Below, piece by piece: positions 7,548-24,255 of a stretch of DNA of 32,000 nucleotides. Source of the DNA: Candidatus Hermodarchaeota archaeon (GTDB lineage: Archaea; Asgardarchaeota; Heimdallarchaeia; Hodarchaeales; Hodarchaeaceae); assembly GCA_048886185.1 (NCBI GenBank), contig JBHLKY010000002.1, positions 202,359 to 234,358 of the forward strand. The letters run 5' to 3'. The notes beneath the pieces are model-generated. The model was given only the letters and a program-made list of their open reading frames with translations, ran no database searches and was not told the origin of the DNA. The position numbers and the translations under genes are program-made. Numbering within the stretch: position 1 is the stretch's first letter; the number at the start of each line of letters is the position of its first letter.

Positions 7548-7718
7548 TATTTGTCTTAGATTTAACCAATGGGGTAAATAAGATCAACATTATTGTTCTT
7601 TATCACTGAGATTTTAGCAACTAGTGTCCTTATATTCCGAAAACTTAGTAAAACATTGGTGGAAGATATTAGAAAAACATCTCTATTCCTTTAAAATCCC
7701 ATGATAAGAGGCATTTTC

Positions 7719-8171
7719 ATGTTAAAAAATGTAGAAGAATATCTTAAGGAATCTCTCATACCCTTACGGCTTTCTGGTACTACAGAATCAGGTTGGCCAT
7801 TTGTAATAAGTCTTTGGTATGTCTACTTAAGTGAAAAATTATACATGGCAACCATCAAATCGGCTAAAGTCGTAGAATATCTTTCTAATAATCCAAAATG
7901 TGCTTTTGAGATAGCAAGTGACCTACCACCTTATTGTGGAATTCGAGGACAAGCGACAGCAAGAATTATCGAATCTAAAGGTGATGAAATCTTAGAAATC
8001 CTCCTTAATCGGTATCTAGGGGGGAAAGAAAACCCCTTGGCGCAAAAACTAATGAATCGGAGAGTATCGGAGGTGGCAATTGAACTTACTCCAGTCAAAG
8101 TATATCAATGGGATTATAGTAAGCGAATGTATAACTCAATTAAGTCTCCTTTGGCAAAAACATGTCCTTAG
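7719..8171 (+). CDS. Pyridoxamine 5'-phosphate oxidase-like flavin-binding (split-barrel) protein
   Basis: LRLSGTTESGWPFVISLWY, SAKVVEYLSNNPKCAFEI, GIRGQATARI. Start at ATG 7719 (GAGG upstream) rather than 7701. Confidence 0.8.
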   Translation: MLKNVEEYLKESLIPLRLSGTTESGWPFVISLWYVYLSEKLYMATIKSAKVVEYLSNNPKCAFEIASDLPPYCGIRGQATARIIESKGDEILEILLNRYLGGKENPLAQKLMNRRVSEVAIELTPVKVYQWDYSKRMYNSIKSPLAKTCP

Positions 8172-8220
8172 TCTGAAAAGCAGAGGAATAAATAAAATAG
8201 AAAATCAGAGGTGTGGCATC

Positions 8221-8640
8221 ATGTCCGAAATTCAATATTCTGCAGGTGTGTGCAATATTGGTGAAGCTGAAATAAAACAAAGACGTCGAATAGGATATAT
8301 TGGCCTTGTTCTTACAGTGATCACAATTATTGTATATTTAATATTGATTTATTCCATAAAACTTGATCCACTTTTTGGAGTGATTATTTTCATACCTGCT
8401 GAAATGACAACTATTGGATTAATCCAAGCCAGGAGTAAATTTTGTGCAGCATATGGACTGACTCACCAACAGAACGTTTCCTCAAGTTTAGGTTTGACGA
8501 TAAAAATAGAAGATGAAGTTTCCCAGAGAGAAGACAGGAATAAAGCAATTAAAATTGTTTTTCAATCCTTAATAATTGCACTGATTATAACTGTTTTCAC
8601 AATTATTGGAGGAATTATAATAAGACAAATGAGTTTTTAA
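8221..8640 (+). CDS. Conserved-looking hypothetical membrane protein (CNIG..E..RR..G / FCAAYG motifs)
   Basis: ATG 8221 gives MSEIQYSAGVCNIGEAEIKQRRRIG, three hydrophobic segments and two motif Cys. The 8080 start overlaps the previous gene and is unlikely. Confidence 0.75.
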   Translation: MSEIQYSAGVCNIGEAEIKQRRRIGYIGLVLTVITIIVYLILIYSIKLDPLFGVIIFIPAEMTTIGLIQARSKFCAAYGLTHQQNVSSSLGLTIKIEDEVSQREDRNKAIKIVFQSLIIALIITVFTIIGGIIIRQMSF

Positions 8641-8686
8641 ATCTAAAATGAAGAAATATACAGTTTAAAAACAAGAAAGAATCAAA

Positions 8687-9580
8687 ATGAAAGTTGGATT
8701 TGTTGGATCAGCTAATACTACTGTTAGATGTAGGCCAGATAAGTCCTTTCGTTTAGCCTCTTATTCCAAGAAAAGAGTCATGCAAACTATTGAGTCAAAT
8801 CTCCAATGTTTACAAAAAACGATCGATTTTAGTACACAAAATAATCTCTACTGTTACCGAATTGCTGATTTCATCCCTTTTTTTTCTCATCCTATTTCAC
8901 TTCCTTGGCATGAAGTTGAAGATACTTTTTCTGATTTGTTTACAAGTATAGGAAAAAGAGTTAGAAAACATAATATGCGAATCAGTATGCACCCAGGTCA
9001 ATATACGATAATAAATTCTCCTAAAGATGAGGTGGTTGAAAAAAGTATAAAAGAATTAGAGGCAAATGCTTGGATATTGGATAAACTGGAATTAAATAAT
9101 ACAGCAAAAGTGCAAATTCATGTAGGGGGAATTTATGGAAATAAAGAAGAGGCTCTTCAACGGTTTATCCAAAATTTTGACTATTTACCTGAATCTATTA
9201 AGAAACGACTAGTAATAGAGAACGATGATCGATTATTTGATTTTAAAGACTGTTCAACTCTATCCACAGAGCTAAAGATCCCTGTTGTATTTGATGTATT
9301 TCATCATTCGATAAAAAATAATAATGAGGGTATTATAGAATCGTTAGATATTTTATTAGACCTATGGAAAACAGATGATGGAACCCCAATGGTTGATTGG
9401 AGTCACCAAGAACCAAAAGCTCGAATAGGGAGGCATGCAAATTCAATTGATCTGGATCTCTTTAAAGTATTCATTCATGAAACAGAGGGAATGGATTTTG
9501 ATTTAGTGCTTGAAATACGAGATAAAGAGAAAAGTGCGATGAAAGCTGCCGACTGGTTACGTAAAATAGGGAGAATTTAA
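8687..9580 (+). CDS. uvsE: UV DNA damage endonuclease (UVDE)
   Basis: YRI..FIPF.SHP, MRISMHPGQY, IHVGG.YG.K, LVIENDD, VFDVFHH, HA, LEIRDKEKSA match UvsE/UVDE TIM-barrel motifs. Confidence 0.93.
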   Translation: MKVGFVGSANTTVRCRPDKSFRLASYSKKRVMQTIESNLQCLQKTIDFSTQNNLYCYRIADFIPFFSHPISLPWHEVEDTFSDLFTSIGKRVRKHNMRISMHPGQYTIINSPKDEVVEKSIKELEANAWILDKLELNNTAKVQIHVGGIYGNKEEALQRFIQNFDYLPESIKKRLVIENDDRLFDFKDCSTLSTELKIPVVFDVFHHSIKNNNEGIIESLDILLDLWKTDDGTPMVDWSHQEPKARIGRHANSIDLDLFKVFIHETEGMDFDLVLEIRDKEKSAMKAADWLRKIGRI

Positions 9581-10963
9581 ATGGGCAACGTAGATACTTC
9601 AAATGAGAAATCTCTTTTCATTTTTAGAAGAGATCTGCGCCTAGTTGATAATAATGCTCTCATTTCTGCTATTGAATCTTCAAAACAAGTTATTCCCATA
9701 TTCATTTATGATATATTTCTTCTTAATAACCCAAATCGTAGTAAAAACGCTATTCAATTCATGCAGGAATCGATTCATGATCTTCAGGGTCAGCTAGAGG
9801 AAGCAGGAGGAAAATTATTTCTATTTGAAGGAAAACCTTGGCTTATAGTCAATAGATTGTTAAATGATCGTGAATTAGAGGTCAAATCCATTTTTATTAA
9901 TCGAGATTATACCCCATACAGTCAGAAACGTGATATTTTAATATCTGAAGTGGCTAAGGATAGAAATGTAAAATTTCGGATTTTTAGTGATCTTTTATTA
10001 AATGAACCTGAATCAGTGGTAAAAAAGGATGGCACTCCTTATACTGTATTTACTCCTTACTACAAAAAAGCAACTGAATATTTAATTACAACTCCTAAAA
10101 AAAATATGCTGGATAATATTTACTCTAATCCTATTGATTCCGAATTAAAGTTTCAAAAAGAGGATTTTCAAACAAATCCTCATACTTTTATCAAAGGGGG
10201 GCGAAAGAATGGATTAAAAATCCTTTCTGAAATCCATAGGTTCCGAAATTATGAAATTGAAAGAAATTTCCCCGCAAAACAGGGGACAACATTTCTCTCA
10301 GCACATCTACGATTTGGAACCATTTCAATACGAGAAGCATATCATAAGATCTACACACAAGATATTCTACCATTAGTAAGACAACTTTACTGGAGAGATT
10401 TCTATTACTATATTGGTTTTCATTTTCCACATGTGTTTAATAAGCCCTTCCGAAAGAAATATAAATCTCTTAAATGGTCTGATAATAAAGAAACATTTAA
10501 ATTATGGTGTGAGGGGAGGACTGGCTTTCCGATAATAGATGCAGGTATGAGACAGCTCAATAAAACTGGTTTTATGCATAATCGAGTTCGCATGATTGCA
10601 GCTTCCTTTTTAACTAAAGATCTACTAATCAATTGGCAATGGGGAGAAAAATACTTCGCTCGTAAATTAATAGATTATGACCTTTCGGTAAATAATGGAA
10701 ATTGGCAATGGAGCAGCAGCACAGGCTGTGACCCCGTTCCGTATTTCCGTGTTTTCAATCCTTGGACACAGCAAAGAAAATTTGATCCGAAATGTGAATA
10801 TATCAAGAAATATATTCCAGAATTAAGAGAATTGAGTCCAAAAGAAATCCATGGCTTAGAAAAATGGACACCTGAAGAGTTACAGTATCCTAAGCCAATC
10901 GTGGATCATTCAAAGGCTCGTACACGAGCAATAATTATGTTCAAGAATATCCAAGAAATCTAA
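9581..10963 (+). CDS. phrB: Deoxyribodipyrimidine photolyase (class I CPD photolyase/cryptochrome family)
   Basis: FRRDLRLVDNNAL, LSAHLRFGTIS, QLYWRDF, W..G.TGFPIIDAGMRQL, MHNRVRM, LIDYD..VNNGNWQW, RVFNP..Q..KFDP. The ATG immediately follows the uvsE stop. Confidence 0.95.
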   Translation: MGNVDTSNEKSLFIFRRDLRLVDNNALISAIESSKQVIPIFIYDIFLLNNPNRSKNAIQFMQESIHDLQGQLEEAGGKLFLFEGKPWLIVNRLLNDRELEVKSIFINRDYTPYSQKRDILISEVAKDRNVKFRIFSDLLLNEPESVVKKDGTPYTVFTPYYKKATEYLITTPKKNMLDNIYSNPIDSELKFQKEDFQTNPHTFIKGGRKNGLKILSEIHRFRNYEIERNFPAKQGTTFLSAHLRFGTISIREAYHKIYTQDILPLVRQLYWRDFYYYIGFHFPHVFNKPFRKKYKSLKWSDNKETFKLWCEGRTGFPIIDAGMRQLNKTGFMHNRVRMIAASFLTKDLLINWQWGEKYFARKLIDYDLSVNNGNWQWSSSTGCDPVPYFRVFNPWTQQRKFDPKCEYIKKYIPELRELSPKEIHGLEKWTPEELQYPKPIVDHSKARTRAIIMFKNIQEI

Positions 10964-11016
10964 AGACAGATTTCTTAATACTAGGTATCTCTATTTGTTG
11001 AGAGAGTTTTTTACTG

Positions 11017-11754
11017 CTAAAAAATTCGACCTAAAGATGCATCTAAGACTTTTCCAGTCATCAAAGGGGTTGTAGCAGCAAATTCTATCATATCATTCAA
11101 ATCCTCTGGTAATAAAGGATAATCAAGAAGCTGCTTTGATATCATTGAAGATGATAAAATTTCAGCTGTAGTGCTGGTTTTCACAGCTTTTTTCTCCAAT
11201 TCTCTTTTGTGACGATCCGTAAAAACATATGTAGGAGATATACCATTGATTCGAATTTTTGGGGCTAAAACTACAGCCATTGAGCGAATTAAATAAACTA
11301 ATCCAGTTTTTGCCACTCCATAAGGCATCTTATCCAATGAAGGTTCATAAGCGGAAGAACTGACAATATGTACGATAGTTCCACCCTCAGACATGAGTTC
11401 AGCCGCCATCCTTGTTAATAAAAAAGCAGATGTTAAATTTACACTTAATACCAAATTAAAAAAAGAAGCATCAACTTCCAATGGATTTTTTGAAGCCAAA
11501 GATCCTCCTATAGTATTTATCAGGATATCTATTGATCCAATTTCATTTTGTATCCACTTTTTTAATTTCTTAATTCCTTCTTCAATTGTACAATCTGCTG
11601 AAATACATCTAATACCTGGAAAACGATCTTTTGACATATTCAGACTGCATATGAGAACTTGATTCTCCTGATTAGAGATTTTTCTCATAATTGCCTCACC
11701 AATCCCTCCAACTGCAACACCTGTTATTAGCACTCTTTTATTCTGAATAATCAC
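11017..11754 (-). CDS. Classical short-chain dehydrogenase/reductase
   Basis: ITGVAVGGIG Rossmann motif, ILINTIG, VNL, IVSS and catalytic YGVAK. Confidence 0.9.
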   Translation of the reverse strand: MIIQNKRVLITGVAVGGIGEAIMRKISNQENQVLICSLNMSKDRFPGIRCISADCTIEEGIKKLKKWIQNEIGSIDILINTIGGSLASKNPLEVDASFFNLVLSVNLTSAFLLTRMAAELMSEGGTIVHIVSSSAYEPSLDKMPYGVAKTGLVYLIRSMAVVLAPKIRINGISPTYVFTDRHKRELEKKAVKTSTTAEILSSSMISKQLLDYPLLPEDLNDMIEFAATTPLMTGKVLDASLGRIF

Positions 11755-12046
11755 ATCTGATTACCTCAATTTTAGTAATTAATCTTTAATTTATTTATCT
11801 CATTTCTTGAATTTCGTTAAGAAAAATAAATTTAACAGTATTTATAGTATGTACTGAAAAATTTCTTAAATCAAGCTAAAAATAAAGACAGAATCATGAA
11901 TCTGGAGAAATCATAATATAACTCTGAGCCAAAAAATGTCAAGAATGATTTAGACTATCCGAGTGTCACTCTGCAACCAGAGAATAGGAACAACTAAAAT
12001 CGAATTTTCGGAGTAGATTATAGTTGAGATTGGAGATGAAAAATTA

Positions 12047-12448
12047 ATGCCACATGTTGTTTTAAAAGGAAGTGTTCACGTAAAAGAGATTTTCACAATT
12101 ATAAATCCAATATTCGTTAGATTAGAAAATGGTCTAATCAAATCTAGTGAATTCTTTATTTCACAAAATGAGAATAGTATGATTATAAAAGCATTGAGTA
12201 TTGAAAATGAAAAGAAGATTTCTTTTCTTATCCTTATAAGTAATCGTGATGATGGAATTGTCATAAGGTTATATCCAGATTTTGATATCCCTAAGACTTT
12301 TGGAGTCAAAAAGATGTTAGCCGAGATAGCTATTCTGATTCTTAAGGAATTTAAAGGATTATCTGTTGGAAAAACGAATTTAAGCGAATTTTTACAAAAA
12401 AAACTTTTGATTTTATCAGAAAAAGAGAAATTCCACACCTTAAAATAA
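12047..12448 (+). CDS. Hypothetical protein
   Basis: 133-aa ORF with GGAG upstream and globular composition. No family assignable from memory. Confidence 0.7.
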   Translation: MPHVVLKGSVHVKEIFTIINPIFVRLENGLIKSSEFFISQNENSMIIKALSIENEKKISFLILISNRDDGIVIRLYPDFDIPKTFGVKKMLAEIAILILKEFKGLSVGKTNLSEFLQKKLLILSEKEKFHTLK

Positions 12449-12474
12449 TGTTACACTGTGTTCTTTAGTGATAT

Positions 12475-12942
12475 TCAGCTCTTAAATAATGTATAATCTC
12501 CTAGAAATCCCCAGTCTTCAATCTTATTGTACTTTGTCTTTCTTGATCGAAAATGCACCCAAATTGTGGCCTTATCAAGAAAGGGATTAGCATGAAAATG
12601 CTTTTGATCACCATATCGAAAGGCTTCTAGCACTAGGGGTAATTCCTGACGAAAAATTCTATCCCGAAACTTCAAAGTACCAATTCCCCCACTTAGTTGA
12701 CAATAGACATGGAGTGAATGTGTTGCTTCAGTTTTCAACCATTCAGCCAATACTTCATCCCGCATTATCCTTGTTTGCCATCCTTTAAGCTGTTTTTTGT
12801 AAAATTCATGGGCAATAGTGAGAAATAAATCTCCTGTCCGATCTGAATGGGTCAATGTATAACAGCGAGGTACTAGAGGGGAATCAATACCCGTTGGGGA
12901 TAAAAATGTAACATGTAATTTATTTGGGTTCAAACGATTCAT
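12475..12942 (-). CDS. Staygreen (SGR) family protein, Mg-dechelatase homolog
   Basis: LNPNKLHV, PRCYTLTHSD.TG.LFLTI, RDEVLAEW, LHVYC, R..IF..ELP..L.AF.YGD, I.VHF.S....YNKIE.WG are the characteristic SGR blocks in the correct order. Confidence 0.92.
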   Translation of the reverse strand: MNRLNPNKLHVTFLSPTGIDSPLVPRCYTLTHSDRTGDLFLTIAHEFYKKQLKGWQTRIMRDEVLAEWLKTEATHSLHVYCQLSGGIGTLKFRDRIFRQELPLVLEAFRYGDQKHFHANPFLDKATIWVHFRSRKTKYNKIEDWGFLGDYTLFKS

Positions 12943-14471
12943 TCTAGAAATCCTTCCGTCAAAAAGCGCTTAGTGGATGATAAATAATAGGGCTTGGAAG
13001 TAGAATTAACCTTTTCGAATTTAGGAGAATCTCTATTAATATTCATGCAGATCTCATCTATCAATTGTTTTGATATTCTGTCAAAAAGAGGTTGGAAAGC
13101 AAACCAATACGATATTCCAATAAGTCCTTTTGGGACGATTCTAAAAATCTGATGAAGTTCAATTTTTTTATCATTAATACGCCTTAAACGATATCTTAGC
13201 ATTGTATACCCCGGTATTATCAAGTCTGTATGTAAGGTTAGTTCCCTCTTTGGAATTTTATTCTGCATTGCAAGAGGGATCTCATTAATATCGATTTTAA
13301 CTTTAAAACCTCTGAAAAAACTATCTAGAAAAGCACCAAATTTCCAAAAGTATGAAATAATTCGCAAATTACCATACTGTTGAATCTGAAGTAATTTGTT
13401 CCACAAATCATCAGCACTACCACTTAAAATGGCCCTACGATGATCTTGGAAAACTAATCCTCCAGACCAAGGTGGGTCTCCTGGAATATGCCATTCAACA
13501 GGCAAATCAGCGTAGTTAGAATAACTTCCATGCATTAGATACTGTTGAGGGTTTAAAGCTAGTCGAATCGCTTGTTTGTGATTTAATAATTCTTGTGGAA
13601 TTAATTCTCTTATCCTAAAATCTTGACAAATAACCTCATTCTTCATTCCATCTATCAATGGACGAGCTAGGGATGATGGAATTCCTGTAATCAATCTAAT
13701 CCAATAAGAACTTAAGCTAGGAGTGAAGAAGGGTATAGGGAAAATTAATCGTCTTGGTAATCTTATAATTTCTATATAACTTTCCATAAACTGTTTATAA
13801 GTAATAATATCGGAACCACCAATATCAAAAGCCTCACCGATTGTTTCTGGTACATCCAAACAGTCAGTCAGATATTTAAGAACATTTTTAATGGCTATAG
13901 GTTGATTCTTAGTTCTAAGCCACTTGGGTGTAATCATAATTGGTAGTCTATCTACTAAGTATCTCATCATTTCAAAGGCTGCGCTCCCACTTCCAATAAT
14001 AATTGCTGCACGTAACGTTGTAACTGGTATTGAACAAGAATCTAGTATTCTAGAAACTTCAATCCGAGACTGCAGATGTTTACTTAATTTTTCTTTTTCA
14101 TCCCCTAATCCCCCTAAATAAATTATTCTCTCAATTGCTGCATTCTCTGCTGCAATAATTGTGTTTTGTGCTGCAATTCTATCGGATTCAATAAAATCTT
14201 TTATTTTCCCTTCCATAGAATGGATTAAGTAGAAAACCGTGGATACTTCATCCATTGCGTCTTCTAAGGTATTAATATCGAAAACATTAAGATTTACTGC
14301 TTTTAAATTTCTATGATGGCTCCACAATCGCGAATTCAATTTGTTTTTTGATCTAAACCCCACACGTACAATATATCCTTTTTCTAAGAGTTTTGGCACA
14401 AGTCTAGACCCTATGTAACCCGTTGCTCCAAGTACAAGAAGTTCTTTCTGTTTCAACATAAGTTTCTCCAT
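12939..14471 (-). CDS. Atypical SDR / NAD(P)-binding protein, YbjT-like, with DUF2867-like C-terminal domain
   Basis: LVLGATGYIGSRL, FYLIHSM, IIYLGGLG, SKHL.SR.EV, LRAAIIIGSGSAAFEM, QPIAI, W.GG, PKGL.G..YW. Its stop overlaps the SGR start (ATGA, 12939-12942). Confidence 0.85.
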   Translation of the reverse strand: MEKLMLKQKELLVLGATGYIGSRLVPKLLEKGYIVRVGFRSKNKLNSRLWSHHRNLKAVNLNVFDINTLEDAMDEVSTVFYLIHSMEGKIKDFIESDRIAAQNTIIAAENAAIERIIYLGGLGDEKEKLSKHLQSRIEVSRILDSCSIPVTTLRAAIIIGSGSAAFEMMRYLVDRLPIMITPKWLRTKNQPIAIKNVLKYLTDCLDVPETIGEAFDIGGSDIITYKQFMESYIEIIRLPRRLIFPIPFFTPSLSSYWIRLITGIPSSLARPLIDGMKNEVICQDFRIRELIPQELLNHKQAIRLALNPQQYLMHGSYSNYADLPVEWHIPGDPPWSGGLVFQDHRRAILSGSADDLWNKLLQIQQYGNLRIISYFWKFGAFLDSFFRGFKVKIDINEIPLAMQNKIPKRELTLHTDLIIPGYTMLRYRLRRINDKKIELHQIFRIVPKGLIGISYWFAFQPLFDRISKQLIDEICMNINRDSPKFEKVNSTSKPYYLSSTKRFLTEGFLE

Positions 14472-14483
14472 TTTAAGAGGATA

Positions 14484-15206
14484 TTAATAATCCTGGCGTG
14501 CTTTCCAGAAATCACCATAAAAGAAAAAACCAATTAATTGAGAAAATACAAATATTATTAATATGATTACTCCTATAACCTGTAATATAAGAATTTGATT
14601 ACTATAATATATAGATAAAGGGATAAAGTTCAGCAGAAACCAGATCCATGAAAAAATCGGAGCAGATATAAACATAAGAGATCTTTTCCATTTTGAAACC
14701 GATAAGAAGGAATTTAAATCGTATTTTATTCCAAAAGTAGGAAATTTAGCAATAGGTGCCCAAGACATCCACCTTGTTTTACGAAAAGTGGATTTAAAAA
14801 TAAAGTATTTCCGAAATCTAATTCCTAAGAAAAATCCAAATATCCAATGGATTAGGGTATGAGAAAGTATAAAATTTACAAAACTTAGTAAAAAATAAAT
14901 AATAATACTAAACCAAAAATCTATAGAAAATATAAAGATTAAAAAATAGAGACTTTCAATTATGATAACGCTAGCTGAGAATAGTATGGTACCAGTTTTA
15001 ATTGAAAATTTTGGAATAGTCCAACTATCGAAGAAAAATTCGTCAATTTTCCCTAGGATATTTCTATCTTCCTTGGTTAATTTGGCTTTTCGTGCGTATT
15101 TTACTGCTGTGAGATATTTTTGCCAATGACTCTTCCGATTTAATGTTCCTGTTTCATATAATTCCGTTAATTCCTTGACATTTTTGTTGAATTTGGTGCT
15201 ATCCAT
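14484..15206 (-). CDS. Hypothetical membrane protein with an M50 (site-2 protease)-like HxxxH ... GD layout lacking the catalytic Glu
   Basis: TM helices, SHTLIHW within a helix, an ISAP segment and a terminal YGDF. The family assignment is tentative. Confidence 0.6.
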   Translation of the reverse strand: MDSTKFNKNVKELTELYETGTLNRKSHWQKYLTAVKYARKAKLTKEDRNILGKIDEFFFDSWTIPKFSIKTGTILFSASVIIIESLYFLIFIFSIDFWFSIIIYFLLSFVNFILSHTLIHWIFGFFLGIRFRKYFIFKSTFRKTRWMSWAPIAKFPTFGIKYDLNSFLSVSKWKRSLMFISAPIFSWIWFLLNFIPLSIYYSNQILILQVIGVIILIIFVFSQLIGFFFYGDFWKARQDY

Positions 15207-15342
15207 TAGAAAGCCTTCTTAGGAGCTATAGTAACTACTGTTCATACCATTGAAAACAATAATTCTCAAGATTTTTTTGAAATATTTCGAAAATTCATTA
15301 GGTTTCAAGAATAAAAAGAGGAGAAGGATCAGGATGATCCAA

Positions 15343-16155
15343 TTAAGCAAAAATTAATCCCATAAAAACAATCCACGCTAGTGCTGATTTAGCAAAGAGG
15401 CTTAATAATTGATAACCTCTTTCTCCATATAGATAATCTTTCCAAGGGCCAATTTTCTTATACTGAAGAAACATATTCAGGGCAAAGCTATTAAAGAAGA
15501 CAAAATAAACTACTAGGGCAACATAGACAAAAGTAGGGACTTCACGTCCTACTGTGTTAATACTCAAGAATGTGTCGAGAATGACGATCCAGGGCATTAT
15601 TCCAGCTATCCATCCCAAGATATAAGGAGTCCAACTTGTTTTTTCAGTATATTGGTTATAAGTCTCCATTAACAATCCAAACATGTTCATTAATCCATTA
15701 AGTACGAAAATCAGAGCAAGGATCCAAAATTCGAGTATACCAAAAGCGAGTGCAATGAAAATGATCATCACCGAACTAGAAAAAGCATATTCGTACCAAC
15801 GAATGGGATTCATTTTCTTCTTCAAATTGGTTACATATTTGTTATATAATGGATAAGCAATCAGTAAATGTGCAATAGCTGACATCAGAAGAAAACTAGC
15901 TAACAGGATACCTGCAATGTTTTTAAAAGTGAAAAATACTTCAGGAACGGGCTCAAGGATTGGCCTAGTACCAGTTAATTCTTTTATATCGAGATAGGAT
16001 CTATAGATGTCAATCTCGAAGTTTTTTATTTCATCAACTACTAAGCTTAGAGCAAATATAACTATTGCTTGCACTAAGTGTAGGATACCCATGGCTAAAT
16101 TGAATTTCCGTAGATAGGAAAATGAAATTTTTGATTCTTCAACATGTGTTGACAT
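15343..16155 (-). CDS. Heliorhodopsin
   Basis: LRKFN..G.LH..Q, S...H, NP.RWYEY..SSS (counterion E122), MN.FG..ME, FN.FA.NM.LQY, GE..Y..LSLFAKS.LAW (Schiff-base K256). AGGAGG RBS upstream. Confidence 0.96.
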   Translation of the reverse strand: MSTHVEESKISFSYLRKFNLAMGILHLVQAIVIFALSLVVDEIKNFEIDIYRSYLDIKELTGTRPILEPVPEVFFTFKNIAGILLASFLLMSAIAHLLIAYPLYNKYVTNLKKKMNPIRWYEYAFSSSVMIIFIALAFGILEFWILALIFVLNGLMNMFGLLMETYNQYTEKTSWTPYILGWIAGIMPWIVILDTFLSINTVGREVPTFVYVALVVYFVFFNSFALNMFLQYKKIGPWKDYLYGERGYQLLSLFAKSALAWIVFMGLIFA

Positions 16156-16366
16156 AATGCAACCTCCTAGTGAATTGGCCTTTAACTTGATAGTTTATAA
16201 ATTCGTTGTGATGATAAAAACGTATTTTCCTCAAGAAAGATTATGGCGAATTTTTAAGAGAAAAGAGATTAATGAGAAAAAAACAAAGAACTCATTATAA
16301 TGAGGATTATAAACCTACCAATAAATGAGTAAGCACTTCTGAAATCATAAAGAAACGTGATAGTTA
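16156..16366. promoter_or_regulatory. Divergent promoter region between heliorhodopsin and the TspO-like gene; contains the perfect 14-bp palindrome CTCATTATAATGAG (16291-16304)
   Basis: On the minus strand, CGAA-TTTATAAA (BRE/TATA-like, about 16205-16194) lies about 40 nt before the heliorhodopsin ATG. The palindrome was verified by eye, with extra AATGAG half-sites near 16271 and 16324. Confidence 0.55.
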
Positions 16367-17134
16367 ATGTCCATTATGAAAAAAAGACAATTTTTAATTT
16401 ATGGTAATGTATTGAGTTTTATTTTAACCATAGTGATGAATTCTTTGGCAAATATTCTTCCTTTAAACGGAAAAACAACTGGAGAACTCAGTGACACTTA
16501 TCCAAACTTATTTATTCCTGCTGGGTATGTTTTTAGTATTTGGGGTCTGATTTACATCTTATTAACAATTTTTACAATTTCCCAGGCCCTACCAAAGTAT
16601 AGAGAAGAGGATGTTGTAAAAAAAATCTCTTATCTCTTTATTGTGAGTAATCTTGCCAATTCCGCGTGGATTGTATTTTGGCATTATGAAGTTATAATCG
16701 CTTCCTTATTGGTTATGTTGATACTCCTTGCCTCTTTAATTCTAATTTACATCCGATTAGAAATTGGAAAGAAGCCTGTGAGTCAAAAAGTTAAGATTAC
16801 TTCTCATATCCCATTTAGCGTTTACCTAGGATGGATTACTATTGCAACTGTTGCAAATGTCACAGCTTTACTTGTATCAATAAACTGGGATGGTTTTGGA
16901 ATAAGTGAAATCATCTGGACTGCAGTTGTAATATCTGTGGCAACACTGATTGCACTAATTCTGATATTTACACGTAAAGACTATGGCTACACTTTGGTTC
17001 CTGTTTGGGCTTTTATAGGTATTGCAGTAAAGCAATTTAATGCCCAAAATAACGTTGTTATTATCTCTTTTATAGCAGCAGGCATTTTAATCATAACATT
17101 GTTTGCTAGATTTACCTGGGATATAACTAAATAG
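16367..17134 (+). CDS. TspO/MBR-related tryptophan-rich membrane protein
   Basis: S..YP.LFIPAGYVFSIWGLIY, N..WI..WHY, PFSVYLGWITIATVAN, about 8 TM helices. It is longer than canonical 5-TM TspO. Confidence 0.78.
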   Translation: MSIMKKRQFLIYGNVLSFILTIVMNSLANILPLNGKTTGELSDTYPNLFIPAGYVFSIWGLIYILLTIFTISQALPKYREEDVVKKISYLFIVSNLANSAWIVFWHYEVIIASLLVMLILLASLILIYIRLEIGKKPVSQKVKITSHIPFSVYLGWITIATVANVTALLVSINWDGFGISEIIWTAVVISVATLIALILIFTRKDYGYTLVPVWAFIGIAVKQFNAQNNVVIISFIAAGILIITLFARFTWDITK

Positions 17135-17139
17135 GAAAA

Positions 17140-18030
17140 TTGAAAATGGATGAAAAAGATATCAAATCACTTGTTGCTATACTTATAATAATATTCATTG
17201 CTGCATGTCTTGCCCTCATTGGTAGCCAGGGAGGCGTTACTGTTCTCGATGGAATACCAGTATTCGCATTTGCAGTAGCTATTGCCTTTATAATTCAATG
17301 GATCGCTTTCATCCCTGCGTATATCAAAAGAACAGAGAAATTCTTTGATCTGACTGGCTTTTTAACTTACAGCATCGTTATTATTCTATCGGTTGTTTTG
17401 AGTCCTGAAATCAATACACGGTCTATTTTGTTAATGTTATTAGTCTTGATCTGGGCGATTCGCCTTGGAATATTCTTGTTTCAGAGAATTCTAAAAGAGG
17501 GCAAGGATAAACGATTCAAGGAGATTAAACAAAATGCTTACCATTTTCTATTGGCTTGGACACTCCAAGGTTTATGGGTTAGCTTTACATTGGCAGCGGC
17601 TTTAGCTGCAATAACAGCAGGGCAGAACGAGGAATTTGATATTTTTGGTTTAATTGGTCTTTTAGTTTGGATCAGTGGTTTTGGATTTGAAGCTATTGCA
17701 GATTATCAGAAAAGTAAATTCAAATCTAAATCTGAGAACAAAGGAAAATTCATTGCTAGTGGATTGTGGTCAATATCACGACATCCAAATTATTTTGGAG
17801 AGATCATCCTTTGGATAGGTATCGCAGTTATTGCACTTCCAACACTTCAAGGTTGGAGATGGATGACATTAATTTCTCCTGTTTTTGTTACATTACTATT
17901 GACTAGAGTTAGTGGTATTCCGCTACTTGAGAAACATGCAGATGAAAAGTGGGGTGGTCAAGAGGAATACGAACAATACAAAAAAAAGACACCAGTACTA
18001 ATCCCAAGACCATTCTTGCTAAAAAAATGA
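17140..18030 (+). CDS. DUF1295 family membrane protein (steroid 5-alpha-reductase-like)
   Basis: EKFFDLTG, IWAIRLG.FLF.RI...G.DKRF, AW.LQG.W, E.IAD.QK..F, GLWS.SRHPNYFGE, SGIP.LE, Y..Y...TP. Confidence 0.9.
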   Translation: MKMDEKDIKSLVAILIIIFIAACLALIGSQGGVTVLDGIPVFAFAVAIAFIIQWIAFIPAYIKRTEKFFDLTGFLTYSIVIILSVVLSPEINTRSILLMLLVLIWAIRLGIFLFQRILKEGKDKRFKEIKQNAYHFLLAWTLQGLWVSFTLAAALAAITAGQNEEFDIFGLIGLLVWISGFGFEAIADYQKSKFKSKSENKGKFIASGLWSISRHPNYFGEIILWIGIAVIALPTLQGWRWMTLISPVFVTLLLTRVSGIPLLEKHADEKWGGQEEYEQYKKKTPVLIPRPFLLKK

Positions 18031-18379: not shown

Positions 18380-18916
18380 TTAAATATTTGACAGTGTATT
18401 AAGAAGCTCGTCAGTACCCATTAAATCTGCGAAGTAGCTACCAAGAACAGTGTTATGATGTTTTATTATTTGCTTTGCTGAAAAATGCTTAGAATGCCAT
18501 GTGCTGTGACAGTCCTTTACAAGTGTTACATCATACCCCAAGCTGTAAGCTCGTCTTACAGTCGTATCAATACAGTATTCTGTTTGAAGACCAATTACTA
18601 TGACTTTTTTCACGTTCATTGATTTCAATAATTCATCCAAATTCGTTTGGTGAAATGAATCAGGTGTTGTCTTCTGAAGAACAGGCTCCTTGTGATTTGG
18701 TCTAACCTTTGGATGAATTTCCCATCCTTCAGATCCAGATTCATCTGGATCACCCTTTTCACCCATATTTTGAATATAAATGACTTTGTGTCCCATTTTT
18801 CTGGCTTTATTTAGAATTTTTTTAGCATTCTCAAGTAATAGATCACCTTGGAATATTGGAGGTGATCCAACGAAATTTCCAACCTGTAAATCGATGATTA
18901 TTAGTGCTACAGTCAT
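18380..18916 (-). CDS. Cysteine hydrolase (isochorismatase/nicotinamidase family)
   Basis: Asp-Lys-Cys triad in IIDLQ, LQKT.PDSF..T.L and GLQTEYCIDTT. Confidence 0.92.
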   Translation of the reverse strand: MTVALIIIDLQVGNFVGSPPIFQGDLLLENAKKILNKARKMGHKVIYIQNMGEKGDPDESGSEGWEIHPKVRPNHKEPVLQKTTPDSFHQTNLDELLKSMNVKKVIVIGLQTEYCIDTTVRRAYSLGYDVTLVKDCHSTWHSKHFSAKQIIKHHNTVLGSYFADLMGTDELLNTLSNI

Positions 18917-19001
18917 GAGATCATTTCTCTCCTTGATATTATATTTAAAAAAGAAGTTAAGACTCTTTCTTATATTGTTTTCAAGGATAATGCATGATAC
19001 C

Positions 19002-19655
19002 TTATGACTCTTTCTTCCATAGATATTCTATGTAATTAGCAGTATTACACGCAACTTCTTCCCCAACAAGTTCAGAAACTAAAAATAGACTCATATCAAT
19101 CCCAGCTGCTACTCCAGCAGAAATCACAATCTTTCCTTGTCCTGTGACAACAAATCGTTTACCTTGCATTACATGGACCTTAGGATAGGTTTTTCTCATC
19201 CGTTCGATACTTGCCCAGTGAGTTGTAGACTCAAAACCGTCTAATAGACCAGCCTCGGCGAGAAGAAAACTCCCTGTGCATACACTCGCCATCAACTGAA
19301 CTTTTTCCCATTGAGTCCTCAACCATTCAATTAAAACAAAGTTTTTTACTTCTTTTCGGGTTCCCCATCCTCCTGGAACCAAGACAAGATCAAATTTCGG
19401 ATGATTATTAAAATCATAATCTGTATCAACTTTTAGGTCACCACGACATTTTATTAGGCCACCATTTTCAGATATTAGCCTAACAGAAAAAGGGCATTTA
19501 TCAGTTCGCTGATTTTTTGTATCCAAGAATCTAGCAACAGAGAAAACCTCAAAAGGTCCACAAAAATCTAAAACCTCAACTTGTTCAAACACTAGAATCC
19601 CTACAATCCATGGAATATTTTCACGAGGTAATTTTATCACGTTTAAGCTTTTCAA
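19002..19655 (-). CDS. DJ-1/PfpI (ThiJ/InhA-like) family protein
   Basis: EVLDFCGPFEVF, LVPGG.G, nucleophile SVCTGSFLLAEAGLLDG..TTHW, SAGVAAGIDM. Confidence 0.92.
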   Translation of the reverse strand: MKSLNVIKLPRENIPWIVGILVFEQVEVLDFCGPFEVFSVARFLDTKNQRTDKCPFSVRLISENGGLIKCRGDLKVDTDYDFNNHPKFDLVLVPGGWGTRKEVKNFVLIEWLRTQWEKVQLMASVCTGSFLLAEAGLLDGFESTTHWASIERMRKTYPKVHVMQGKRFVVTGQGKIVISAGVAAGIDMSLFLVSELVGEEVACNTANYIEYLWKKES

Positions 19656-19685
19656 TAAACCATCTCAATCAATTGTTAGAGTGAC

Positions 19686-20900
19686 TTATTTATGCAATTT
19701 TAGATCTTTGCTAAAGAATAAAAAACTTATAATCAAGAAAAGCCCGAATAAAGTGGATAAACCACTTAGAATAAAGGCTGCATCTAAATTTGAAAAGAAA
19801 TCTGCAATAATACCAAATGTTATGGAACCAATCCCGAAACCTGTAGCTAATCCAGTACCAAATACCCCCATTGCTAACCCCCGCTCCTCACGTTTTGTGT
19901 CTACTGCAACGAGAGAGATTAACGAAGGATAGATGATACCAAAGCCAAATCCCGCGAAAAAAAGTGGAATTATTACAACGATTGGGTCTGTGATTACTGG
20001 TGTGATCATGATACCAACCCCAATGCAGGTTATCCCTAAAAACATGTTAAACCTATTGCCTATCAACCCAGTAATTCTTGCTGTCAATAAACGACTGAGT
20101 AGCGCACTAATATCTCGAAATGCCAACAATATCCCTATCTCCAATGAGAATAACCCTAATCCCCTAAGAAATAACGGATGGAAGGAAACCCCAACACTGT
20201 AGCTCAATGTCATCAGAAAAGATCCAAAAGTTGCTAATGCAACATTTCTCTTGTTACGAAAAAGGTAGATACCTTTAGAGTAACTTTCAAGAATCCCCTT
20301 CTTCTTCTGAATAAATACTTTATTAGGTTCCTGATCTCTTATTCTCTGATTTCTCCTCAAAAGAAGAAGAGTCGAAAAAAATCCTACCACAGCAAGGCAC
20401 GTGAAAGCCACGAAAACAGATTCATAATTAATATGATCAATTAGCATCCCAGCAATCGGGGGACCAGTCAATTGGCCTAATCCTGTGATCGCTAAATAAT
20501 GTCCCATAATCTGAGGCCTTTCACTCTCACTCCCTAATTCTGAGATATATGCGGGTTCTGTTACGCGAAATGACGCTGCTGTAAGTCCCCACAACATCTG
20601 CGCAGGTAGAAATAGAAGAACTTGTTTCATGACCATCCCTATGAAGAATGTCACTCCTGAAGCCAATCCAAGAATAAATGAAATACCATAAAAAAGTTCC
20701 CAACCAAACATGTCAGCACTTTCTCCCATTGGCATACGGAGTCCTGATTGAATTATTGCCCTTGTACTTGCTATTAATCCTACTAATGCTGTCGTAGCCC
20801 CCAAAGCACTAGCTGCTAATGGCACTGTTGGACTTAATAGACCTAACATGGTAGTATATATAGTACCAATACATATAATCAAGAAAAAATCCGTATTCAA
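19686..20900 (-). CDS. MFS transporter
   Basis: About 12 TM helices in two halves, P.G..AD..G motif A, GP..AG, ERGLAMG.F. TTG start. Confidence 0.9.
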   Translation of the reverse strand: MNTDFFLIICIGTIYTTMLGLLSPTVPLAASALGATTALVGLIASTRAIIQSGLRMPMGESADMFGWELFYGISFILGLASGVTFFIGMVMKQVLLFLPAQMLWGLTAASFRVTEPAYISELGSESERPQIMGHYLAITGLGQLTGPPIAGMLIDHINYESVFVAFTCLAVVGFFSTLLLLRRNQRIRDQEPNKVFIQKKKGILESYSKGIYLFRNKRNVALATFGSFLMTLSYSVGVSFHPLFLRGLGLFSLEIGILLAFRDISALLSRLLTARITGLIGNRFNMFLGITCIGVGIMITPVITDPIVVIIPLFFAGFGFGIIYPSLISLVAVDTKREERGLAMGVFGTGLATGFGIGSITFGIIADFFSNLDAAFILSGLSTLFGLFLIISFLFFSKDLKLHK

Positions 20901-20980
20901 CCTTTATTATTTCCTCTCTAGTATTTTTCCAATAAAAGGTTACAATTTCTCTTAAATTCCGATATAGACTGCTCAGTAAC

Positions 20981-22033
20981 TTAACCAATAACTTTTTTCA
21001 TGATATTCAACGCATTTCCGCTCAGGATTTTTTCTATTTCTTGATCACTATAACCTCTGGAAACTAAACCTCGGGTAATATTGGGCCATTCTTCGGGACT
21101 TTCGATGCCTGCCATATATGGGGCATTTAATTCTTGCCCTGTACGCTCCAGAAAGAAAACGGTTCTAGCTGCTTGACGATGATATTCGACTTGATCCTCA
21201 AAAACATTATCTAATCCTATTGCACATTTGTCGTTTCCTATTAAATCTACAATGTAGTCAACATGATTTAATAGGTCATCAATCCCTTGTTCAGGTTTAT
21301 TACTCAGCTGATTGGGAATAGCAGAGACACCAGCGATTCCCCCCTTCTCTGCTAAGGCTTTGAGCTCTTCATCGGTCTTTAAGCGCTTACATTGTGGATG
21401 AAGGGCCCTTGCTCCGACATGGTTGGCGATTACGGGATCCTTGGATGACTCAATTGTATCAAGGGTGGTCTGGACACCCACATGAGAAAGATCGATCAAC
21501 ATCCCAACTTTATTCATCCGTTCGACCAAATCGATCCCAAAGTAAGACAATCCTTGGTTGGTACGTTCCCCACACCCGTCACCAACGTACGTTCGTGTAT
21601 TGAATGTAAGTAAAGCCATCCGGATTCCAAGTCCATAAGCGACATCTATATTATCAAGGTCTTTTCCAAACGTCTGAGGTTCAAGCTGAAACATGGTGGC
21701 TATTTTTCCCTCCTGTTTTGCGCGTCTAAAGTCCTCAGACTTGAATGCAGGCATAAAATCTGGATGTTTGATTACACGTTGTATCAAGTATCCTAGTTCA
21801 TCCATTGATTTCTGAAAGTATTCATGAATTGCTGCAATAGCCTCTACAAATCCTGTTACACCAGAGTTCTTGATTCTAGGCACAATGAAGTCTTCATCAG
21901 GCAGAATGTGTGAATGAAGGTCAATTGTAATGATCTTTTTGTGTAGCTCATCAGCTCGTTCTTCATCTACTTTATCAAGTTTAATAAAACGTTCTTTGAG
22001 AGGTAACTTCAAATATTCTTCAAGTGGGAGCAT
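20981..22033 (-). CDS. Membrane dipeptidase (M19) family amidohydrolase, copy 1 (subtype A)
   Basis: DLHSH, QLEP, LTFN, GLSYFG..LVERMN..GMLIDLSH, NH, GLDN, GY....I.KI..GN. Start set at ATG 22033 (MLPLEEY) by alignment with the paralogs; the track's 22105 start overlaps copy 2. Confidence 0.88.
   Translation of the reverse strand: MLPLEEYLKLPLKERFIKLDKVDEERADELHKKIITIDLHSHILPDEDFIVPRIKNSGVTGFVEAIAAIHEYFQKSMDELGYLIQRVIKHPDFMPAFKSEDFRRAKQEGKIATMFQLEPQTFGKDLDNIDVAYGLGIRMALLTFNTRTYVGDGCGERTNQGLSYFGIDLVERMNKVGMLIDLSHVGVQTTLDTIESSKDPVIANHVGARALHPQCKRLKTDEELKALAEKGGIAGVSAIPNQLSNKPEQGIDDLLNHVDYIVDLIGNDKCAIGLDNVFEDQVEYHRQAARTVFFLERTGQELNAPYMAGIESPEEWPNITRGLVSRGYSDQEIEKILSGNALNIMKKVIG
21361..21553. repeat. 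Near-identical tract shared with 23571-23763 (8 mismatches in 193 nt)
   Basis: Manual alignment at offset 2210 nt. Confidence 0.9.
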
Positions 22034-22085
22034 ATTATACCTTCCTATAAAATTGAATGGAGTGAGAGGAAACCGAATTCTCTCA

Positions 22086-23162
22086 CTACCCAATGACTCT
22101 CTCAATTATTTTCATTGCATTCACCCCGATAATCTTCCGAATCTCTTCATCAGAGTATCCTTCGGACACTAAACCACGAACTATATTTTTCCATTCATGT
22201 GGACCTTCAATACCAAATAGATAATCACCTTTTAGCTGTATTCCAGATTTTTCGAAATTTCTAGAAGCTGCCATCCTTCTGTGCCCAGCTACTTGGTCAC
22301 GAAATACATTATCCAAACCGATAGCAACGTGGTCGATTCCAACAAGGTTGATACAATAGTTGATGTGCTTGAGATGATCTTCAATTCCTTGATCTACGTC
22401 GAAAGAAAGTTGATTAGGAATAGCACTTATTCCTATTAGCCCTTTTTTCTCGGCAACAGCTTGTAATTCCTCATCATTTCGTAACCGTTTGCAAGGTGGA
22501 TTCAAAGCTCGTGCTCCTGCGTGGTTAAAGACACATGGCTCTTTTGAATGTTCAATTGCGTCCAAAGATGTCTGGATCCCAGAGTGACTTAAATCAATGA
22601 GCATCCCAATTTTATTCATACGTTCAACGAGTTCAAGCCCTAAATAACTAAGACCTGCATTGGTTCTCTCTGCAATACCATCACCGATATAGTTTCTAGT
22701 GTTGAAAGACAGCAAAGCCATTCTTATTCCAAGTCCATAAGCGATCTCCACCCTATCAAGATTCCTACCAAACGTGTTCGGCTCTAATTGAAAAAGTACA
22801 GCTTGTTGGCTATTTTCTTTTGCTTTTCTTATATCATCTGCTTTAAAGGCTGGCACTAGACTTGGTTCTTTCTCAGTAATTGCGAGATACTTGCCTAGAA
22901 TGTCCATAGATTCAGTGAAATTCTCTGAAAGTGTTGGGACTGCTTCAAAACAACCTTCGACACCCATTTGATGGGTGAGATTAAGTTTTTGCTCGTTCCA
23001 CTCGAATATCACTGATCCGAATATATGAGTATGTAAATCGACCTTTAATGACTTTTTAAAGAGTTCCTCTGCTCGCTCTGATTCTGATGAGCTTAATTTT
23101 ACGTACTTTTCTTCTTCTGAAAGTGCTAAATACTGCTCGCGACTAAAACCTCGGTTTGTCAT
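22086..23162 (-). CDS. Membrane dipeptidase (M19) family amidohydrolase, copy 2 (subtype B)
   Basis: DLHTHIFGS, FEAVP, QLEP, LSFN, DLSH, FNH, GLDN. Probable ATG 23162 after GGTGG (track start 23177). Confidence 0.88.
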   Translation of the reverse strand: MTNRGFSREQYLALSEEEKYVKLSSSESERAEELFKKSLKVDLHTHIFGSVIFEWNEQKLNLTHQMGVEGCFEAVPTLSENFTESMDILGKYLAITEKEPSLVPAFKADDIRKAKENSQQAVLFQLEPNTFGRNLDRVEIAYGLGIRMALLSFNTRNYIGDGIAERTNAGLSYLGLELVERMNKIGMLIDLSHSGIQTSLDAIEHSKEPCVFNHAGARALNPPCKRLRNDEELQAVAEKKGLIGISAIPNQLSFDVDQGIEDHLKHINYCINLVGIDHVAIGLDNVFRDQVAGHRRMAASRNFEKSGIQLKGDYLFGIEGPHEWKNIVRGLVSEGYSDEEIRKIIGVNAMKIIERVIG

Positions 23163-23190
23163 TAGATGTATTACCACCTTTTTGTGATCG

Positions 23191-24246: not shown

Positions 24247-24255
24247 TAACTCTCC

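Follow-up and report, generated by a model that had tools for sequence, protein, structure and literature searches.

What does a heliorhodopsin (HeR) do at the head of a gene run that ends in a Staygreen (SGR) Mg-dechelatase homologue, in an archaeon whose genome bears no sign of phototrophy? The question is raised by a stretch of 32,000 nucleotides, here called the window, from an Asgard archaeon of the Hodarchaeales (Candidatus Hermodarchaeota archaeon, GenBank assembly GCA_048886185.1, contig JBHLKY010000002.1, positions 202,359 to 234,358 of the forward strand). What HeRs do has not been settled since they were discovered, and the partner enzymes put forward for them are few. The role of SGR in organisms without chlorophyll is equally open. 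A preliminary description of the window, made from the sequence alone, noticed genes for a UV-damage endonuclease, a photolyase, SGR, HeR, a TspO-like protein and a DUF1295 protein within about 9 kb. It proposed that a non-photosynthetic archaeon senses light and co-regulates DNA repair with the disposal or scavenging of phototoxic pigments from phototroph debris. We find the pairing of HeR and SGR in several phyla, which merges both questions into one: does light, via HeR, control the removal of Mg from foreign chlorophyll-type pigments? On balance we favour the view that the locus is a conserved defence island against light and photo-oxidative stress in a non-phototrophic, Hodarchaeales-type Asgard archaeon. 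That the island answers to light is quite probable.

The HeR of the window (Table 1) is recognised over its full length, with 289 bits against PF18761 (cut-off 26.7) and 307 bits against NF038020 (cut-off 100), and is closest to the Thermoplasmatales structure TaHeR (6is6, 1.6e-62). The counterion Glu122 in helix 3 and the Schiff-base Lys256 in the last helix are invariant in an alignment of 19 sequences and align with the TaHeR motifs. HeR is the only recognisable photoreceptor in the island besides the photolyase; among the window open reading frames (ORFs) scanned against Pfam, at approximately 1-27 kb, there is no gene that combines a MerR helix-turn-helix with a B12-binding domain in the manner of CarH/LitR. 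On the minus strand HeR is followed by a membrane protein of 240 residues (TM240), an extended short-chain dehydrogenase/reductase (SDR) fused to a DUF2867 domain (SDR-DUF2867) and SGR. The gaps of 136, 12 and -4 nt that had been given for this run are exact, the stop of the SDR-DUF2867 gene overlapping the SGR start by 4 nt, and so is the spacer of 211 nt to the divergent TspO-like gene. UvdE (termed UvsE in the preliminary description), photolyase, SGR, HeR and DUF1295 likewise lie where they had been placed, as borne out by the ORF listing and by Pfam and NCBIfam. Just past the HeR stop a short inverted repeat is followed by a T-run (15300-15342, minus strand), which could be a partial archaeal terminator before the rest of the operon.

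The SGR of the window reaches 163.5 bits against PF12638 (cut-off 27) and matches the bacterial homologue AbSGR-h (PDB 7y5y) at full length, over residues 1-152, with an E-value of 1.6e-47. In AbSGR-h, D34 and D62 are essential and catalytic, together with H32, and R26, Y28, T29 and D114 are structural (PMC8531759). The window protein keeps R26, Y28, T29, H32, D34, D62 and D112 (the equivalent of AbSGR-h D114), all of them invariant or nearly so in the alignment. The residues known from AbSGR-h for the removal of Mg are invariant in all HeR-linked SGRs. Judged by its sequence, the window SGR holds every residue needed for the predicted Mg-dechelatase activity. AbSGR-h takes Mg from chlorophylls a, b and c, from chlorophyllide and from protochlorophyllide, and its specificity is described as broad (PMC11006732). 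The protein is reported to form a hexamer. In the SGR tree, the window protein belongs to a Hodarchaeales clade with 99% support.

The linkage of HeR and SGR is found far beyond this contig. We scanned 80 SGR loci, taken from contigs of one genome per species, with the window proteins. In 16 of the 80, HeR is found no more than 10 kb from SGR; these loci belong to Anaerolineae, Dehalococcoidia, Actinomycetes, Hodarchaeota and a single-cell genome of Thermoproteota. Mostly HeR directly precedes SGR on the same strand, and in 11 distinct loci, which represent different phyla, the gap measures 19-82 nt. It might be thought that nothing more than a general reshuffling of genes in these metagenome-assembled genomes (MAGs) brought the two together, by chance or hitch-hiking and without a shared function. 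If HeR is assumed in approximately 15% of genomes, with a 20-kb interval searched in a genome of approximately 4 Mb, chance would place HeR at about 0.06 of the 80 loci, as against the 16 observed, and the pairing recurs over four phyla or more and spans several clades of SGR. Chance synteny is effectively refuted. The pairing is not the inheritance of one clade either, since SGRs linked to HeR turn up in eight or more clades of the SGR tree, with no fewer than 15 state changes. The preliminary description had left room for a linkage unique to this contig; instead the genus shares it, as do other Asgard families and the Chloroflexota, Actinomycetota and Thermoproteota.

Within the class, 60 genomes were compared. 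SGR is present in 16 of them, the window's own included, and HeR also in 15 of these 16. HeR is directly upstream of SGR, at 39-50 nt, in three relatives (G004, G018 and G020). The closest relative (G008) has the four-gene operon of the window, followed after approximately 45-70 nt by a classical SDR, and it shares the divergent layout of HeR and the TspO-like gene, with a spacer of 219 nt. The classical SDR, found again in G004, G018 and G020, probably closed the HeR operon in its ancestral form. Two other genomes (G010 and G012) have versions of the HeR-SGR pair that are rearranged yet nearby. In relatives a PNPOx-like gene, an ORF of 139 residues, UvdE, photolyase, the classical SDR and DUF1295 surround the pair in shuffled orders. 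The clustering of the island genes is far beyond chance and recurs, with orders shuffled, in congeneric genomes and in other phyla. The sole congeneric genome with SGR and without HeR (G011; L067, C1, 10001-10480) has an SGR that ends at approximately residue 140, carries a small internal deletion and lacks C-terminal residues that are otherwise invariant; the gene seems to be in decay.

Two of these loci deserve description in their own right. In G010, a complete congeneric genome (L044, C1, 9478-14563), one strand carries, in this order, DUF1295, a tocopherol-cyclase-like gene, SGR, an MFS transporter and HeR; directly downstream are the 139-residue ORF, UvdE and photolyase. In G047, which belongs to another family of the class, HeR and SGR are 2.7 kb apart, and 9 kb (L048, C53, 900-9600) hold HeR, an alpha/beta hydrolase, SGR, an FAD oxidoreductase, a Rieske/VanA_C oxygenase and a DUF1295 paralogue. 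On paper, this set resembles chlorophyll dephytylation, Mg removal and ring opening.

The two genes also keep company where they are not neighbours. When HeR was absent from the fetched SGR locus, 30 of 50 genomes carried it elsewhere. Among 301 Asgard genomes, 76 have SGR, 89 have HeR and 53 have both; HeR is thus present in 53 of 76 genomes with SGR as compared to 36 of 225 without (odds ratio 12). In 19 of the 53 genomes with both genes, these lie within 10 kb on one contig, some co-directional and some divergent. An even sample of 200 genomes of the class Anaerolineae gave HeR in 7 of 9 SGR-positive and in 24 of 191 SGR-negative genomes, with the pair within 5 kb in 6 of the 7. The pattern of co-occurrence is consistent over three separate samples. 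An SGR remnant adjoins HeR in one genome (G238) and a HeR remnant adjoins SGR in another (G299); with the truncated SGR of G011, HeR and SGR appear to decay in parallel.

What could such a pair do in this host? Source names of near-identical proteins and of related loci (Candidatus Hodarchaeota, Hodarchaeum mangrovi, Heimdallarchaeota, Promethearchaeota) indicate an Asgard archaeon of the Hodarchaeales type. The genome assembly has 4.84 Mb and is 96% complete, and the DNA occurs in sediment metagenomes, probably the source samples. Neither a reaction-centre gene (Photo_RC) nor a BchH/CobN-type chelatase was found in the assembly, and the organism's earlier characterisation as a non-photosynthetic archaeon stands. 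Because the genome shows no reaction-centre, BchH/CobN-type or PAO genes, chlorophyll met by the cell would be foreign. We propose that the island consists of three transcription units. The UvdE-photolyase unit would repair UV lesions. The HeR-led operon would comprise HeR, the 240-residue membrane protein, SDR-DUF2867, SGR and, ancestrally, the classical SDR. The TspO-like and DUF1295 genes would form a divergent operon. HeR, with retinal lysine and counterion intact, would serve as light sensor. The most likely role of SGR would be to remove Mg from pigments of the chlorophyll type that phototroph debris delivers to the cell or its membrane, an exogenous source being suggested because the genome shows no means of making such pigments. 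Binding or photodegradation of the tetrapyrrole left by SGR would fall to the TspO-like protein, and the reductase-type enzymes would act on pigment or on lipid that has been damaged.

These parts differ in how far we trust them. For an exogenous chlorophyll-like pigment as the SGR substrate the chances are, in our estimate, slightly short of even. It is rather unlikely that HeR directly contacts SGR or another product of the operon as HeR does with photolyase; such a contact is suggested by analogy, because of the precedent in Trichococcus flocculiformis (PMC9769723), the published HeR neighbourhoods (PMC8612252) and the phrB-tspO locus of Mycobacterium kansasii (PMC9861118). We hold it unlikely that HeR is a light-gated regulator of SGR, in which case illuminated HeR would bind or activate cytosolic SGR, alone or with SDR-DUF2867 and the TspO-like protein, and non-phototrophic archaea and bacteria that live among phototrophs would demetalate foreign chlorophyll and dispose of it just when it turns phototoxic. 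If this were true, it would give a physiological function both to prokaryotic SGRs, among them the homologues from the archaea most closely related to eukaryotes, and to a large share of HeRs. A quite different use of the enzymes would be the supply of the HeR chromophore. HeR requires retinal, SDRs include retinol dehydrogenases, and the SDRs and DUF1295 might provide HeR with retinoids or carotenoid fragments by salvage or interconversion, SGR being a passenger. No BCD/Blh-family dioxygenase was detected in the genome, but control genomes were equally silent, so that this is uninformative. This account is met by a phytoene-synthase-family gene elsewhere in the genome, by the fact that no partner of HeR in these loci is more tightly linked or more widespread than SGR, frequently without an intervening SDR, and by the absence of any link of SGR to retinoids; we consider it very improbable.

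Several observations weigh against a defence island that is directed by HeR at foreign chlorophyll, and they concern the linkage as well as the chemistry. With respect to linkage, Fisher p-values overstate the signal, because related genomes are not independent. Many genomes carry HeR and no SGR, seven of them in the class sample. In 45 of the 80 SGR loci, especially those of Bathyarchaeia, the fetched stretch holds no light-associated gene. In one Asgard family (f17, e.g. G319, G348 and G369), 10 of 19 genomes have SGR and none of the 19 has HeR, hence SGR works without HeR. Furthermore, HeR may partly be transcribed alone, since the T-rich, hairpin-like stretch and the 136-nt gap follow its stop, and read-through from HeR to the next gene is not assured. 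A shared light regulon, and nothing beyond it, has to be weighed at this point: the genes would be co-induced by light or UV, and HeR would have no direct relation to SGR, functional or physical, and serve another output or the same stress regulon. The family with SGR and no HeR suits this explanation, as do the bacterial SGR loci with a CarH/LitR-type regulator instead of or besides HeR (10 of 80), the varying layouts (co-directional, divergent or 2-9 kb apart) and, as weak evidence, the lack of a HeR-SGR fusion among the longer SGR-containing proteins searched. It accounts poorly for the gaps of 19-82 nt with HeR directly upstream in the 11 loci, for a co-occurrence that persists where the genes are unlinked, for the seemingly parallel decay and for published HeRs that act via operon-encoded partners (PMC9769723). 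We regard co-regulation without any closer relation as improbable. Even then, prokaryotic SGR would be placed in a light-stress response.

With respect to chemistry, the ring-opening oxygenase PAO (PF08417, PaO) was not found in the 96%-complete genome, the Synechococcus control being positive, and the related Rieske/VanA_C oxygenase that stands beside SGR in G047 has no match in the window genome either. The missing PAO-type oxygenase counts against a complete disposal pathway. As cited in two sources (PMC11006732 and a 2026 preprint on prokaryotic chlorophyll degradation), the chlorophyll activity of prokaryotic SGR homologues has been termed promiscuous. Removal of Mg alone leads to pheophytin or pheophorbide, which still are photosensitisers (the same preprint; also textbook knowledge). 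Alternatively, the HeR-SGR module is real and its native substrate would be something other than chlorophyll, namely another metallated tetrapyrrole or an unrelated ligand on which SGR acts under the control of HeR; its task might be to remodel or repair membrane lipids or isoprenoids in a light-dependent manner, e.g. for the quenching of singlet oxygen. This alternative draws on the absent PAO, on the low substrate specificity of the bacterial homologue and on neighbours that may handle lipids: SDR-DUF2867 with its SRPBCC-like lipid-binding domain, DUF1295, DegV, the additional acyl-CoA-synthetase-like (AMP-binding) gene and acyltransferase in the islands of G004, G018 and G020, and the tocopherol-cyclase-like gene of G010. 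The invariant Mg-removal residues of all HeR-linked SGRs speak against it, as does the recurrence of a TspO-like, tetrapyrrole-binding protein beside SGR. Moreover, we know of no alternative SGR substrate. We grant a non-chlorophyll substrate a small chance, and defence against light and foreign chlorophyll-type pigments is the reading that we retain.

To count the other recurrent neighbours of SGR, all genes of the 80 loci were clustered without bias. The SDR-DUF2867 fusion is the commonest (15-16 loci); then come HeR itself (14-16), an MFS transporter (14), an ABC ATPase (13), DUF1295 (12-14, and also near SGR or HeR in the genus), a CrtI-like amine oxidase and photolyase (12 each) and, in bacteria, a CarH/LitR-type regulator of MerR and B12-binding domains (10). 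TspO-like protein and DegV follow with 9 loci each, an alpha/beta hydrolase with 6 (present also in G047, with none in the window), and AhpC and nitroreductase with 5 each. At least one light-associated gene is present in 35 of the 80 loci and a photoreceptor gene, HeR or CarH-like, in 25. The wider surroundings of SGR are likewise enriched in genes for light and UV, namely photolyase, UvdE, CarH-like regulators and the TspO-like protein. The synteny search that had been proposed for HeR, SGR and TspO across archaea and Chloroflexi yields a recurrent HeR-SGR pair, and a TspO-like protein near SGR in the 9 loci just counted. In two loci of Hermodarchaeota-labelled MAGs (L114 and L125), the peroxiredoxin AhpC precedes SGR and a photolyase faces it; their genome (G100) is without HeR.

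The island is wider than first described. The preliminary description set its start at 8687, the UvdE gene. The recurrent island starts near 7701 instead, because the PNPOx-like gene and the 139-residue membrane ORF recur around HeR and SGR in relatives. Orthologues of the PNPOx-like gene, with 65-79% identity, lie within the same island of G004, G008 and G020. Those of the 139-residue ORF adjoin UvdE or HeR in G004, G008, G010, G012, G018 and G020 and align from approximately residue 35-48 of the long ORF at 8080-8640. UvdE reaches 184 bits against PF03851 (cut-off 24) and is followed by the photolyase gene with a gap of 0. The photolyase has an N-terminal photolyase domain and FAD-binding domain 7 according to Pfam, and its best NCBIfam models stay under their equivalog cut-offs (8-HDF type, 389 versus 885 bits; PRK10674, 339 versus 506 bits).

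Table 1. Genes and intergenic region of the island in the window (coordinates are those of the window; aa, amino acids)
Feature	Coordinates	Strand	Match or remark
PNPOx-like gene (pyridoxamine-phosphate-oxidase fold), left edge of the island	7701..8171	+	PF01243 24.3 bits, weak, under cut-off
Small membrane ORF, 139 aa, family unknown	8221..8640	+	inner ATG of ORF 8080-8640; Pfam: none
UvdE UV-damage endonuclease	8687..9580	+	PF03851 3.8e-54
Photolyase of the cryptochrome-photolyase family, putatively class-I-type CPD	9581..10963	+	PF00875 9.4e-37, 127 bits; PF03441 3e-82, 275 bits
Classical SDR	11017..11754	-	PF13561 and PF00106
Conserved hypothetical ORF, 133 aa, between SGR and classical SDR	12047..12448	+	Pfam: none
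Staygreen (SGR) Mg-dechelatase homologue, soluble, 155 aa	12475..12942	-	PF12638 3.8e-48
Atypical/extended SDR (NmrA/NDUFA9-like) fused to divergent DUF2867 (SRPBCC-like), 510 aa	12939..14471	-	PF13460 and PF05368
Multi-pass membrane protein (TM240), 240 aa, rare unannotated family	14484..15206	-	Pfam and NCBIfam: none
Heliorhodopsin (HeR), head of the minus-strand run	15343..16155	-	PF18761 2.6e-86; NF038020 1e-91
Divergent intergenic region between HeR and TspO-like gene, 211 nt	16156..16366		AT-rich
Distant TspO/MBR-like membrane protein, 255 aa	16367..17134	+	five-helix TSPO-like core with extra helices
DUF1295 membrane protein (steroid-5-alpha-reductase/ICMT-like superfamily)	17140..18030	+	PF06966 3.4e-68

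The TspO-like gene was placed correctly in the preliminary description, and its label leans on relatives and fold rather than on a direct match. The protein itself does not match PF03073 even at E<=10, NCBIfam gives no match likewise, and a profile of 20 relatives found none among the PDB sequences. The label is used because 9 of the 20 relatives (48-82% identical) match PF03073, with 3.8e-7 at best, because database names of relatives include 'tryptophan-rich sensory protein', and because the AlphaFold model overlays RsTSPO of Rhodobacter. This AF2 model has a pLDDT of 90; Foldseek gives a probability of 0.95-1.0, a target TM score of 0.62-0.72 over 160-175 columns and an E-value of approximately 0.7. 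It contains the five helices of the TSPO fold and extra helices. Such indirect support points to a distant TspO-like protein with extra helices as the predicted product of this gene. The DUF1295 gene starts 5 nt after it.

SDR-DUF2867 itself matches DUF2867 with an E-value of 0.18 only, and 12 of 13 orthologues match it, the best at 3.8e-33; the domain lies in the C-terminal half. In the model, the N-terminal domain resembles NDUFA9 and extended SDRs of the sugar-epimerase type. The modelled C-terminal domain has low to moderate confidence, and the 50 top PDB matches listed are all of the SDR, NDUFA9 or epimerase type and concern the N-terminal part. The TM240 family has 29 representatives at E<=1e-3 among 1.84 billion sequences and occurs, among the sampled relatives, in G008 only. 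The gene contexts of its relatives show no consistent link. One relative (44% identical) adjoins a phytoene synthase, a gene for a B12-binding protein and a 255-residue gene, and another adjoins a copper ATPase. Look-alikes proposed by a language model give a weak hint of membrane peptidases of the DUF3267/M50 type.

Some features of the region stand apart from the conserved set. The 133-residue ORF is a local insertion: it is not present in the loci of relatives and occurs in one copy in the genome. Its Atlas model is confident, and hypothetical relatives of approximately 119 residues are widespread in bacteria and archaea. To the right of the island, the region 18380-25326 holds isochorismatase-like, DJ-1/PfpI and MFS genes as well as four tandem genes for M19 dipeptidases; they are treated as a separate locus because none of them recurs with the island in relatives. 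DJ-1, isochorismatase and MFS (18380-20900) and, on the left, a GT2 gene were considered as members of the island and rejected, as they do not recur in the loci of relatives. A comparison of the island's intergenic regions revealed no shared operator motif that links the promoters of HeR, UvdE and the TspO-like gene. Two 10-mers, ATTTGTCTTA and TTAGATTTAA, follow the stops of the GT2 gene and of the 139-residue ORF (7549-7565 and 8621-8646), the second pair being reversed; they might represent a short element common to both genes, serve as a 3' signal or be coincidental.

The locus would bear on how heterotrophs of sediments and mats, Hodarchaeales included, withstand light and the pigment debris of phototrophs. 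Archaeal SGR homologues are already known, and so are HeR neighbourhoods with photolyase and UvdE (PMC8612252, PMC9769723). New would be SGR as a partner in a HeR operon or light-stress island. The author of the preliminary description knew of no HeR-Staygreen linkage, and in agreement with this the searched library contains no paper, Bulzu et al. 2021 (PMC8612252) included, that mentions heliorhodopsin together with staygreen or with a dechelatase; the 2026 preprint cited above is silent on rhodopsins.

Among known systems, the plant PAO/phyllobilin pathway (SGR, PPH/CLH, PAO, RCCR) shares with the window its first committed enzyme, SGR, present with its catalytic residues. Unlike in this pathway, no PaO-domain or related Rieske oxygenase was found in the genome, and the genes are clustered with genes for a photoreceptor and DNA repair. 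A dedicated pheophytinase or RCCR did not turn up in an analysis that had no test aimed at them. Closer to the window protein is AbSGR-h from Anaerolineae bacterium SM23_63, which is of the same family, soluble, approximately 155 residues long and likewise from a non-phototrophic host, whereas the window SGR is archaeal. The papers on AbSGR-h (PMC8531759, PMC11006732) do not discuss its physiological role or its gene neighbours.

Light-switched gene groups offer a second comparison. In bacteria, the CarH/LitR regulons of B12 photoreceptors and the phrB-tspO locus of M. kansasii, which is induced by light (PMC9861118), resemble the island in that photolyase, TspO-type proteins, carotenoid-type oxidases and transporters are grouped. 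In contrast to the CarH/LitR regulons, the ORFs scanned in the window are without a MerR/B12-binding regulator. HeRs flanked by genes for photolyase, UvdE, carotenoids and oxidative stress were described by Bulzu et al. 2021 (PMC8612252), and this paper proposes HeR as a sensory switch for defence against light-induced oxidative stress. A search for terms in it found DUF1295 nowhere, 'chlorophyll' once, in the introduction, and Asgard once, which shows how little it covers this group (TspO was not among the terms).

The closest parallel is the HeR of T. flocculiformis (TfHeR), which binds and stimulates a CPD-II photolyase encoded in its operon, through its cytoplasmic loops (PMC9769723). In the window, too, HeR heads an operon with a soluble enzyme, and a photolyase is also part of the island. 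Unlike in T. flocculiformis, the tight partner of HeR is SGR, and the photolyase is class-I-like and belongs to a separate operon 4.4 kb away. HeR and glutamine synthetase reportedly form a further regulatory pair of this kind. As expected of a regulatory operon of HeR and a partner, an enzyme gene in the operon of HeR is conserved across taxa, in 11 loci and in the four-gene version of the window.

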